Source of the DNA: a virus
Taxonomy: Monodnaviria > Loebvirae > Hofneiviricota > Faserviricetes > Tubulavirales > Inoviridae
DNA: 7,565 nucleotides
Virus record (IMG/VR): IMGVR_UViG_2537562217_000001
Direction: 5' to 3' (one strand)
Made by a program: the position numbers and the translations under genes. The notes under the pieces were generated by a model. It had not been told where the DNA came from. It did not search any database and was given only the letters and a program-made list of their open reading frames with translations. Positions 5,955 to 6,597 of this stretch are shown in pieces (the stretch's first letter is position 1; each line of letters begins with the position of its first letter).

Positions 5955-6203
5955 ATGTCTGTAAAAAATAAGGCGCGTGACCGACTTCCCGGTGGCCGCC
6001 TTAAGTCTTATCGTCGTGTAGGTTCACATTTTGCCAGTTGTGCCAGATGGTTTGATAAATCGCCGTCCTGGTATCGCAATATGATGATGACCAGGCCTGA
6101 GCGCCGTGAAGTCAGAAGGCTTCTCAATCAGGTAATGCGTGGTCATGATGCTGACGGCATTGCTTTTCCGGTCAGTCATCGTCCGTTTGTTTATTGGTGG
6201 TGA
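5955..6203 (+). CDS. Hypothetical small basic protein, 82 aa, unknown function (possible phage cargo or regulatory gene)
   Basis: ORF with RBS AGAGGA about 7 nt upstream of ATG 5955. Arg/Lys-rich (MSVKNKARDRLPGGRLKSYRR...). Followed immediately by an imperfect inverted repeat. GC content looks higher than the phage structural genes. No family recognised. Confidence 0.3.
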   Translation: MSVKNKARDRLPGGRLKSYRRVGSHFASCARWFDKSPSWYRNMMMTRPERREVRRLLNQVMRGHDADGIAFPVSHRPFVYWW

Positions 6204-6348
6204 ATTTCGTACGCACGAAATTTCACGCATAAACACCAGACAAAAAATCGTTAACTGTCTGTTTTGAAAGATAACGCCGGTCAGTGACAAAACTTGTTTT
6301 GTTGCTGTCCGGGGTTGGCCAAGCCGTACAGTTTCCATTTTCAGCGTT

Positions 6349-6597
6349 ATGGCTGATTCGGCGCGGCAGCATTCATCGGGGCTTATCATGGAAAAATTCA
6401 TGACACATCAGGAGCTGAAAGTGATGCTTCTCAAAGATCCAGCATTCCGGGCTGCTTATGAAGCTGAGAGCCAGAACCCGCAATCCGGTTACCAGATTAT
6501 CCGGCATCATGGTGATGGCACTGAAGAAGTGGTGTTTGATTCTCGTGTATCAGGTACAGATTTACCAACTAACTGGATGAACAGGCCTGATTGGTGA
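6349..6597 (+). CDS. Hypothetical small acidic protein, 82 aa as drawn (true start may be ATG 6388 or 6400), unknown function
   Basis: Open frame ending TGA 6595-6597. Alternative in-frame starts at 6388 (MEKFMTHQ...) and 6400 (MTHQELK...), each with a weak Shine-Dalgarno. The N-terminal segment ELKVMLLKDPAFRAAYEAE loosely resembles the start of small antitoxin/regulator proteins, but this is unverified. Confidence 0.3.
   Translation: MADSARQHSSGLIMEKFMTHQELKVMLLKDPAFRAAYEAESQNPQSGYQIIRHHGDGTEEVVFDSRVSGTDLPTNWMNRPDW

Follow-up and report, generated by a model that had tools for sequence, protein, structure and literature searches.

Terminal ORFs of a CUS-1/YpfΦ-type filamentous prophage at Escherichia coli dif probably belong to two independent modules, a putatively leader-gated core gene and an accessory slot

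Introduction

What is the role of the two short ORFs that separate the secretin gene from dif in filamentous prophages of the CUS-1/YpfΦ type, where CTXφ carries ctxAB? These phages are carried by invasive Escherichia coli K1 (CUS-1) and pandemic Yersinia pestis (YpfΦ). Their terminal genes, YPO2280a and YPO2281 of YpfΦ and the CUS-1 homologues, have been described as having 'no predictable functions' and as a positional replacement of ctxAB, and a review of YpfΦ singles them out as an open question (PMC4266046). A literature search for expression, ribosome profiling or genetic studies returned no experimental data on ORF1, ORF2 or the leader described below. The question is addressed here for a stretch of 7,565 nt, IMG/VR record IMGVR_UViG_2537562217_000001, referred to as the window.

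A first-pass annotation made from the sequence had reported two unrecognized 82-aa ORFs in this position and compared them with ctxAB, a comparison already present in the literature (PMC4266046). The ORFs are the same genes, in the same phage type and the same attR/dif-adjacent position, as YPO2280a/YPO2281 of Y. pestis YpfΦ and their counterparts in CUS-1 of E. coli O18:K1:H7; in Y. pestis NCTC5923, ORF1 is 100 %, ORF2 97 % and the whole phage 99–100 % identical. The equation of ORF1 with YPO2280a and of ORF2 with YPO2281 is by gene order only. The label 'unrecognized' is appropriate in that no fitting family was found in Pfam, NCBIfam or PADLOC, but not with respect to the literature, where the homologues appear without a function.

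Both ORFs are real genes but they are not a pair. We consider it probable (roughly 0.6) that the segment consists of two independent phage modules, the first being a leader-gated core gene and the second an accessory slot. Module 1 would comprise the leader ORF and ORF1 (5884–6203), and module 2 (about 6204–6737) the conserved hairpins, the accessory acidic ORF2 and attP-proximal DNA, forming the variable slot of the lineage. Beyond the published description, the present analysis corrects the start of ORF2, identifies the leader ORF with its hairpin, shows that ORF1 is conserved at long range and that the two ORFs are separable, and places ORF1 in a wider superfamily. The question of the terminal ORFs thereby splits in two, one part concerning a constrained core gene and the other an accessory gene.

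Prophage setting of the terminal segment

The window is an IS1-truncated filamentous prophage of the CUS-1/YpfΦ type integrated at E. coli dif. Among complete E. coli genomes there was no exact full-length match, the best covering 92 % of the window. The secretin gene gIV occupies 4622–5866 on the plus strand, as given by the ORF list and by GspD annotation in identical E. coli loci, and an exact match to the 28-mer dif site is found at 6738–6765 on the same strand. This attR copy combines a phage-derived XerC arm with a chromosomal central region and XerD arm. This places both ORFs in the interval from the secretin gene to dif, as first proposed. Prophage-free E. coli share only positions 6735–6770 of the window, which is dif itself, so ORF1 and ORF2 are phage-borne and not ordinary chromosomal genes at dif.

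The segment had been described as richer in GC than the structural genes, which is modestly correct for total GC (0.474 for 5955–6597 vs 0.418 for 351–5866) but does not extend to GC3, which at 0.42–0.43 is not above the 0.44 of the adjacent secretin gene. The alternative that this is intergenic or regulatory DNA does not hold for the two ORFs, but the DNA separating them does contain conserved non-coding hairpins. An antisense ORF of 125 aa (6024–6401) was rejected as a gene, its reading frame being interrupted by stops in most relatives. A search of Rfam with 5800–6960 gave zero matches, and a promoter scan gave five matches against 2.1±1.5 expected, an uninformative excess. The leader and ORF1 are probably co-transcribed with gIV upstream.

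ORF1 as a core gene of the phage lineage

ORF1 (5955–6203, plus strand) encodes an 82-aa protein that is, as noted from the start, strongly basic (pI 11.5, with 18 K+R against 6 D+E). Its length is constant across at least six genera, and its dN/dS is 0.12–0.26, compared with pN/pS above 1 in shifted frames; because of this combination it is considered a genuine gene. ORF1 was found in every relative compared, and at long range no other phage protein is conserved as well. In the Xenorhabdus-type relatives it is 59–70 % identical, compared with 26–49 % for gIV, 41–47 % for gI and 27–36 % for gIII; gVI and gVIII reach 51–62 and 44–65 % in partial alignments. This identity is retained despite near-saturated synonymous divergence (pS 0.6–0.7). 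At shorter range, the ORF1 of Brenneria alni (L006), a close relative, is 78 % identical and conserved no better than gV, gX or gVIII. On this comparative evidence ORF1 is a core gene of the phage lineage under strong purifying selection.

DNA homology to the window begins about 60–75 nt 5' of ORF1 in every locus, regardless of the upstream neighbour. In one Pantoea (L004) and one Brenneria (L005) locus, an intact module of leader and ORF1 adjoins dif and the phage genes are absent; in an Erwinia locus (L017), ORF1 is present only as a fragment. A search of the Pantoea mini-element for an attL-like site at its left edge found none, and for this reason the element looks like a deletion remnant rather than a mini-IMEX.

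A superfamily search yielded 153 cluster representatives related to ORF1, all of them without annotation. Their contexts include filamentous phages, virulent tailed phages, a plasmid-like Rep3 replicon and chromosomal islands carrying restriction–modification (RM) or toxin–antitoxin (TA) genes; one distant relative adjoins hicAB and another a Panacea-domain gene. When both proteins, 68 relatives of ORF1 and 10 longer relatives were searched against Pfam, NCBIfam, PHROGs and PADLOC, the only match was of ORF2 to PHROG 6642, and PDB profile searches with both proteins gave chance matches only. Judged by these sequence relationships, the ORF1 superfamily is wide, previously unannotated and spread across many kinds of mobile element, and it gives phage biologists a concrete new object of study. 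A further 29 % 'relative' from a Pseudomonas MAG (L018) was dismissed as spurious, being part of a 960-aa ORF.

A putative leader micro-ORF and a predicted SD-occluding hairpin

Upstream of ORF1 on the same strand lies a micro-ORF of 14 codons plus stop (5884–5928), encoding MALTFMGYEQYDIF. An in-frame ATG and stop were present in 12/12 related loci, among which the peptide GYEQxDIF was invariant. The variable columns of the leader fall 1/1/7 on the three codon positions, with the first- and second-position changes all within a single variable codon; outside that codon, 6/8 third positions vary vs 0/16 first and second positions. Distant members of the family have related leaders (MHYLDQDIF-stop, MSWYPALDIF-stop, ...HYQELDIL and MVKHYRKALDAL-stop). 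A layout of leader plus occluded Shine–Dalgarno (SD) sequence was counted in 9 of 14 superfamily lineages, against 1.0±1.0 expected, with 0/300 shuffles reaching 9; this count used a strict SD criterion for the leader, by which the window's own leader, with its weak SD, failed. These patterns suggest that the leader is translated. Part of the apparent peptide conservation could instead be an RNA constraint, since the last codons of the leader also form the anti-SD arm.

That arm belongs to a predicted RNA hairpin at 5920–5949 (plus strand), in which the last codons and stop of the leader (AUCUUCUAGG...) pair with the SD region of ORF1 (...CUUAGAGGAU). The SD itself, GAGG at 5944–5947, lies inside the 3' arm. 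The hairpin was predicted independently by RNAalifold, and 94.6 % of cells in the stem alignment were paired, compared with 40–52 % in slid controls. One pair shows compensation from GC to UA/AU, to which double-sided covariation in the close set is limited. Folded as a single sequence, the region has a dG of -24.2 and a z of -3.2, and 0/200 shuffles were equally stable. Distant loci have analogous SD-occluding stems of different sequence, and the SD of the ORF1 family was at least 75 % paired in 10/11 loci. The leader ORF with its SD-occluding hairpin is a new finding of this analysis.

These observations point to a gate on ORF1 translation. The ribosome-binding site of ORF1 would be buried in the hairpin, with the end of the leader ORF of 13–14 codons serving as the 5' arm. 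Translation of the leader, with termination at its stop 26 nt upstream of the ORF1 AUG, would open the hairpin and free the SD, so that the output of ORF1 would be coupled to, and limited by, translation of the leader. The conserved motif Y-x3-D-I-F-stop suggests a possible contribution of the nascent leader peptide, which might for instance cause a pause at termination. A tentative and on balance improbable extension is that this motif represents a new regulatory nascent-peptide class, in which a termination pause would hold the hairpin open and gate a widespread, previously unrecognized family of small basic proteins with a highly conserved host target. The family concerned is carried by filamentous and virulent tailed phages, plasmid-like replicons and genomic islands.

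Leader-peptide translational coupling is known from tap-repA of plasmid R1 and repY-repZ of ColIb-P9, where leader translation is needed to open a stem. The predicted layout resembles these systems in that a short upstream ORF ends within or beside a stem sequestering the SD of the main gene, and in that the leader has its own ribosome-binding site, although the SD of the window's leader is weak. It differs in that the predicted regulated gene encodes an 82-aa basic protein rather than a replication initiator, and neither an antisense RNA nor a pseudoknot was identified here. The conserved Y-x3-D-I-F peptide is unlike pure coupling and recalls regulatory nascent peptides such as TnaC.

If the 5920–5949 stem were a mere terminator of the morphogenesis operon, the leader ORF would be fortuitous. 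A terminator scan does flag the stem, with 12 bp and a U-rich tail, and it lies 54 nt past the gIV stop. However, only 3/12 of its pairs are G–C, and the ATG, stop and peptide of the leader are conserved in frame, with the third-position bias given above. In addition, distant loci such as L021 and L029 have the same layout of leader and occluded SD behind unrelated upstream genes and with no U-tract, and the upstream ORF is enriched over shuffles. We regard a mere terminator as very unlikely. The stem with its U-rich tail could also be a weak terminator after gIV.

As a constrained core gene with a predicted family-wide gate, ORF1 is a candidate for a step in the relationship of phage and host that is essential or dose-critical. 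Its structure model is of low confidence (pLDDT 51), so the idea of nucleic-acid binding draws only on charge and aromatic content. At a guess, ORF1 could be a dose-sensitive protein binding nucleic acid or a host factor, with a conserved cellular target rather than Xer/dif specifically.

ORF2 as an accessory gene

ORF2 was confirmed to exist on the plus strand and to encode an acidic protein (pI 5.15), but the start first assigned to it at 6349 is over-extended. Its homologues and PHROG 6642, a family of unknown function, align only from residue 14 of the 82-aa version, and the conserved ATG at 6388 gives a protein of 69 aa (6388–6597) with a conserved core of about 52 aa and a variable tail. 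The PGAP start, at 6400, is a non-conserved Met. The AlphaFold model (pLDDT 73) comprises two helices and a beta-hairpin, and a structural neighbour search with it found none.

ORF2 is under selection, yet it has been lost or pseudogenized in many relatives. It is absent beside an intact ORF1 in the loci L004 and L010–L015, is a pseudogene in L007/L008, and in L046 occurs without ORF1. By these comparisons it is a dispensable accessory gene in a variable slot between ORF1 and attP.

Toxin–antitoxin, recombination-factor and cargo readings

The first-pass annotation had suggested a toxin/antitoxin-like pair, in which the basic ORF1 would be the toxin and the acidic ORF2 its neutralizer. The opposite charges, the adjacent position on one strand and the occurrence of distant ORF1 relatives near hicAB and a Panacea-domain gene would agree with this, and tight translational control by the predicted hairpin would suit a toxin. 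An obligate pair is contradicted by the loci listed above in which either ORF occurs without an intact partner. The ORFs are also separated by 184 nt with two conserved hairpins, rather than forming an overlapping or tightly linked bicistron, and searches of Pfam, NCBIfam, PADLOC and the PDB matched neither protein to a TA or defence family. A toxin–antitoxin role is barely credible on these grounds. Could ORF1 instead be an accessory factor for attP/dif recombination, an XafT analogue from another superfamily that aids XerCD on the forked-hairpin attP or controls excision? XafT of TLCφ and PSB15 of Xanthomonas φLf-UK are, like ORF1, small proteins at the attP-proximal end of XerCD-dependent filamentous phages, the attP-adjacent terminal gene of Vibrio CTX-I phages is xafT, and the XafT authors foresaw activators from other superfamilies. 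The present phage is without any DUF3653 protein, dif lies 3' of ORF1 on the same strand within 0.1–1.9 kb in all 16 enterobacterial loci, the two are kept together in the mini-remnants, and close control of its dosage would be in keeping with a recombination factor. However, shared ancestry and gene order alone could explain this linkage, the variable slot lies between ORF1 and attP, and integration of the CTXφ type requires no phage factor. ORF1 is oriented opposite to xafT, and its family is dif-linked only within the enterobacterial inovirus clade; distant relatives occur in virulent tailed phages, the Rep3 replicon and RM/TA islands, and a dif-like site was absent from the five loci scanned (L019–L027). 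Nor does ORF1 show similarity to DUF3653 or lambda Xis. Membership of DUF3653/XafT/PSB15 was rejected by Pfam for ORF1 and 67 relatives, in a search where PSB15 itself matched at 1.7e-8, and by hhalign against PSB15 (probability 0.1 %); kinship with lambda Xis was rejected by hhalign (0.1 %), by BLASTP, which gave no alignment, and by the PDB profile search, which returned no Xis chain. A recombination role for ORF1 is thus unlikely.

It is similarly doubtful that both ORFs are lysogenic-conversion cargo (morons) benefiting the host, as an equivalent of ctxAB. Like ctxAB, they follow the morphogenesis/secretion genes and precede attR in a filamentous prophage that is integrated at dif and has a forked-hairpin attP; their GC is slightly above that of the structural genes, ORF2 varies in presence, and CUS-1 and YpfΦ have modest in vivo fitness effects of unexplained basis (PMC4266046). 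Unlike ctxAB, the ORFs have neither homology nor secretion signals, and no signal peptide, toxin domain or effector domain was found in either protein. Their GC3 is close to that of gIV, and the published fitness defect of CUS-1 maps to puvA (gIII), not to ORF1 or ORF2 (PMC4266046). The cargo position proposed at the outset therefore holds for the variable attR-proximal interval and the accessory-like ORF2, but not for ORF1, which is universal, has relatives in virulent phages and retains 59–70 % identity in the Xenorhabdus relatives where the secretin retains only 26–49 %. For ORF2 alone, cargo-like in its variability, a cargo role is plausible, and it is the better candidate for a conversion function. 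The arrangement as two modules, a core ORF1 with its putative leader and a slot holding ORF2, remains the preferred reading.

Non-coding elements of the slot and attP

The interval between ORF1 and attP varies across relatives. In Xenorhabdus, a search from ORF1 to dif for hybrid att junctions, which would indicate a second IMEX, found none. At its ORF1 end, folding as ssDNA gives a near-palindrome or hairpin overlapping the ORF1 stop codon (6200–6226, plus strand); the Pantoea locus L004 has a palindrome of different sequence in this position. An imperfect hairpin at 6273–6316 (plus strand), GTGACAAAAC..GTTTTGTTGC with CCGG/CCGG flanks, is conserved and is a candidate cis-acting element. It is kept both in L004, without ORF2, and in L046, without ORF1, and might conjecturally be a packaging signal or minus-strand origin. 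The attP-proximal non-coding segment (6598–6737, plus strand) contains an imperfect inverted repeat (6603–6620/6679–6696) and is conserved in L017 and L046. The attP site itself can be read at the junction of tandem copies in NU14 and Y. pestis; as ssDNA it folds into a forked hairpin (z of -6.7).

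Phage origin of the two ORFs

The filamentous prophage in the window was identified as CUS-1/YpfΦ and is truncated within its replication gene. An IS1 end (1–303) meets the phage at approximately 303 and leaves only the C-terminal/gX part of gII (351–665), so that this copy is unable to replicate alone. It is followed by gV (677–994), a small membrane protein gene (997–1248), the major coat gene (1283–1516), gIII/PuvA (ending at 3293), gVI (3306–3593), the Zot-like gI (3597–4622) and the secretin gene gIV (4622–5866), with ORF1 and ORF2 between gIV and an exact E. coli dif site (6738–6765). 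The region 5860–6770 was at least 99 % identical in approximately 96 of 5,426 complete E. coli genomes, and approximately 2,670 further E. coli genomes matched over 6735–6770 only, which is dif itself. Because these other genomes match dif alone, ORF1 and ORF2 are prophage DNA and not chromosomal genes. Chromosomal homologues at prophage-free dif, which would have contradicted the phage-borne status proposed in the first-pass annotation, were looked for and not found.

The same annotation placed two unrecognised ORFs at the position equivalent to ctxAB in CTXφ. Both are real, yet neither the observation nor the analogy is new, since the 2014 YpfΦ review (PMC4266046) already lists them as 'unknown ORFs'. 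There, YPO2280a and YPO2281 directly adjoin attR, have no predictable functions, are common to CUS-1 and occupy the place of ctxAB in CTXφ, with their function named as an open question (PMC4266046). No experimental studies of them published since then turned up in a literature search.

Tandem phage copies in E. coli NU14 and Yersinia pestis NCTC5923 revealed how the genes are ordered in the circular form and the sequence of attP at the copy junction, GGTGCGCATAA-TGTACGACTCG-TTATGTTGAAA, after which a GC-rich stem-loop precedes an inverted dif-like site. In single-stranded form, attP was computed to fold into a forked hairpin (z = −6.7), in agreement with the CTXφ-like model put forward for YpfΦ; this predicted fold is consistent with CTXφ-type single-strand integration. 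At the tandem-copy junctions (L002:1290–1400; L003 at approximately 10784) the XerC arm was identical to that of dif, the spacer was 11 nt and the XerD-like arm was imperfect, and the layout was the same in the relatives from Xenorhabdus (L012) and Brenneria (L006).

ORF1 belongs to the conserved core of the phage

ORF1 (5955–6203) encodes 82 aa with a pI of 11.5 and 11 aromatic residues, and homologues of exactly 82 aa were found in Salmonella, Pantoea, Brenneria, Morganella, Xenorhabdus and Pectobacterium. Comparison with 11 related loci gave a dN/dS of 0.12–0.26 at pS 0.43–0.70, with pN/pS >1 in shifted frames; the frame of a 125-aa antisense ORF overlapping ORF1 was interrupted by stops in most relatives. 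Among 16 related genomic loci, ORF1 was always 3′ of the secretin gene where one was present, and dif always followed on the same strand, 0.1–1.9 kb away. In the Xenorhabdus-type phages ORF1 was 59–70 % identical, compared with 26–49 % for gIV, 41–47 % for gI, 27–36 % for gIII, 51–62 % for gVI and 44–65 % for gVIII (partial alignments); the replication genes had no detectable counterpart there. In the closer Brenneria alni phage, ORF1 (78 %) was average for its genes.

In every locus, DNA homology to the window started at 5880–5897, irrespective of the sequence upstream. In Pantoea piersonii (L004) and Brenneria (L005), an intact leader and ORF1 adjoined dif in the absence of other phage genes, the genes immediately upstream being ordinary chromosomal ones, and an Erwinia locus (L017) held only an ORF1 fragment beside dif. 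The long-range identity, constant boundary at 5880–5897 and stand-alone occurrence indicate that ORF1 is a discrete, strongly constrained module and not variable cargo. ORF1 is thus a conserved core module of the phage, a result new to this analysis.

These dif-side remnants, flanked by ordinary chromosomal genes, comprised leader, ORF1, hairpin and dif in Pantoea (L004:9925–10402), leader, ORF1, ORF2 and dif in Brenneria (L005:9927–10622), and the ORF1 fragment and dif in Erwinia (L017:1489–1787). The Pantoea and Brenneria remnants nearly share their left boundary (window position ~5880), where no attL-like site was seen.

A leader ORF ends in a predicted hairpin occluding the ORF1 Shine–Dalgarno sequence

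Alignment of the 130 nt upstream of ORF1 from 12 loci revealed an ORF of 13–14 codons, located at 5884–5928 in the window and reading MALTFMGYEQYDIF before its stop; the Xenorhabdus form is M-x-x-I-I-GYEQLDIF-stop. The nine conserved codons (stop included) had 1, 1 and 7 variable columns at codon positions 1, 2 and 3, both non-third-position changes falling in a single variable codon, and the stop alternated between TAG and TAA among loci. RNAalifold, given no hint, paired the last leader codons and stop with the ORF1 Shine–Dalgarno (SD) region (5920–5949; GAGG at 5944–5947) and also predicted an outer helix between GGAUAUGAG of the leader and the ORF1 AUG region. In the hairpin structure 94.6 % of cells were paired, versus 40–52 % with slid partners; changes were one-sided at seven pairs, with GC to UA/AU compensation at one. 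The window sequence alone folded likewise (ΔG −24.2, z −3.2, 0 of 200 shuffles as stable).

The same layout recurs in distant ORF1 family members of unrelated sequence: MHYLDQDIF-stop with stem UUCUAAACGG/CCGUUUGGAG in the GC-rich genome L021, MSWYPALDIF-stop in L029, ...HYQELDIL written with different codons in L033, and MVKHYRKALDAL in L023, whose stop lies within UGUGAGU/ACUCACA abutting GAGG. Family members in tailed phages have uORFs of 2–3 codons after strong SDs (MSN, MS, MR or ML, then stop). When strictly defined (SD-like motif, ATG, and a stop ending 8–40 nt upstream), uORFs occurred in 9 of 14 lineage representatives, versus 1.0 ± 1.0 in dinucleotide-shuffled leaders (maximum 4, 300 shuffles). 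Of 11 loci with an identifiable main SD, 10 had it paired to 75 % or more. A conserved leader ORF ending in an SD-occluding hairpin is a family-wide trait of ORF1, newly described here.

From these alignments and folds, the simplest mechanism would be translational coupling from a putatively translated leader to ORF1, in which a ribosome terminating on the leader would unwind the stem, and the melted stem would free the SD 26 nt from the ORF1 AUG. As the peptide motif is conserved, the nascent leader chain may also have a part in this. RNA and peptide constraints are confounded at the D-I-F codons, as these form the anti-SD arm; the upstream Y/E/Q codons and the recoding in L033 point to some constraint on the peptide itself. 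The stem and its U-rich tail were also flagged as terminator-like in a scan; in GC-rich relatives the stem is present and the U-tract is not, so termination cannot be its general explanation.

The ORF1 family and its possible roles

An exhaustive profile search with ORF1 returned 153 cluster representatives at E ≤1e-3, sharing an N-terminal MS-x-K...DR, a P-x-W-[WY]...T-R-P-x-R-R motif and G-x-D-x-D...P-L-x-x-K-P-H-x-Y-Y-W finishing exactly at the C-terminus. No Pfam match was found for 68 members or for 10 longer members; the only library match was one weak PHROG hit, and source names were 'hypothetical protein' throughout. Distant relatives were located in an integrase/ParA island, a Rep3-type replicon, a Panacea/MmeI restriction-modification island, a hicAB/IS locus and several tailed-phage genomes (with DNA polymerase A, SNF2 helicase, T4-type RNA ligase/PNKP, Acb1 and ribonucleotide reductase). 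This unannotated and widely distributed family is likewise new here. In two tailed-phage contexts (L024:1141–2069, L035:14104–14947) genes for PTH2 (peptidyl-tRNA hydrolase) and then an RNaseH-like protein recur near the ORF1 relative, immediately 3′ of it in L024.

A scan of five distant family loci (L019–L027) revealed no dif-like site, and a role specific to filamentous phages or Xer recombination is unlikely. The position of ORF1 is analogous to that of XafT, but an XafT-like Xer activator was not supported: DUF3653 is absent from ORF1, its family and every CUS-1 protein, the genuine DUF3653 protein PSB15 lacks profile similarity to ORF1, and in the loci scanned the family is not dif-linked beyond the enterobacterial inovirus clade. 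A lambda-Xis-like protein was rejected. The first-pass suggestions of cargo or a toxin–antitoxin-like pair were only partly right; co-occurrence, spacing and homology all speak against a pair, and ctxAB-like cargo is untenable for ORF1 and possible for ORF2. As a weakly supported working guess, ORF1 might be a dose-limited protein binding nucleic acid or a host factor.

ORF2 is an independent accessory gene

ORF2 was first read from 6349, yet its homologues and PHROG 6642 align only from residue 14 of that reading; the conserved start, M-[EK]-K-F, lies at 6388, giving 6388–6597. PGAP starts the gene at 6400, a Met replaced by Thr in Brenneria and Pectobacterium. ORF2 was absent from L004 and from the Xenorhabdus loci L010–L015, where the interval between ORF1 and attP is occupied by unrelated ORFs, mostly on the minus strand, and in Xenorhabdus L007 and L008 it has an in-frame stop and no start codon. 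No att junction was found inside this interval, which is accordingly part of the phage. Conversely, the IMG/VR contig L046 carries an ORF2 (77 % identical), conserved hairpins and attP-proximal DNA after a secretin of only 26 % identity, and has no ORF1 (best HMM E-value 0.4). Loss in relatives and occurrence without ORF1 indicate that ORF2 is real, dispensable and separable, a gene of a variable slot. Its status as an independent accessory gene emerges newly from this analysis.

A near-palindrome at the ORF1 stop (6200–6226) and an imperfect hairpin between the ORFs (6273–6316) may be cis-acting phage sites; that they serve as packaging signal or minus-strand origin is conjectural. The latter hairpin is kept in E. 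coli, Pantoea, Brenneria, Erwinia and L046, with or without either ORF, its stem being conserved over five genera. In Pantoea, a palindrome of unrelated sequence lies just past the ORF1 stop. The Xenorhabdus relatives (L007–L015) have 0.7–1.9 kb of variable, mostly minus-strand ORFs between ORF1 and dif, including a recurrent small protein starting MSTPKRTTMAIVAERKLKLERLAIDASHV, and in L007 two different inoviruses stand in tandem ahead of one dif.

Left-end variation and insertion sequences

Left-end (attL-side) genes were unlike in E. coli strains with otherwise identical phages (L001:3331–5082 versus L002:1397–3582), one strain encoding 158-aa, zinc-ribbon and 139-aa proteins and the other 368-aa and 139-aa proteins, among which only an HTH_3 repressor was recognizable. 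This difference confirms the left end as a second variable region of the phage. In the window, ORF1, its leader and ORF2 are all intact despite the truncated gII. The start of gIII/PuvA was 1581 by mechanical ORF call versus the equivalent of 1731 by PGAP in identical loci. In E. coli N10, VR50 and 510016, too, IS1 has inserted into this prophage, at positions similar to or different from that in the window. An IS2 transposase (orfB) fragment (6969–7565, minus strand) lies approximately 200 bp right of dif, and in strain 510016 the IS2 orfB fragment disrupts the ydeT fimbrial usher region.
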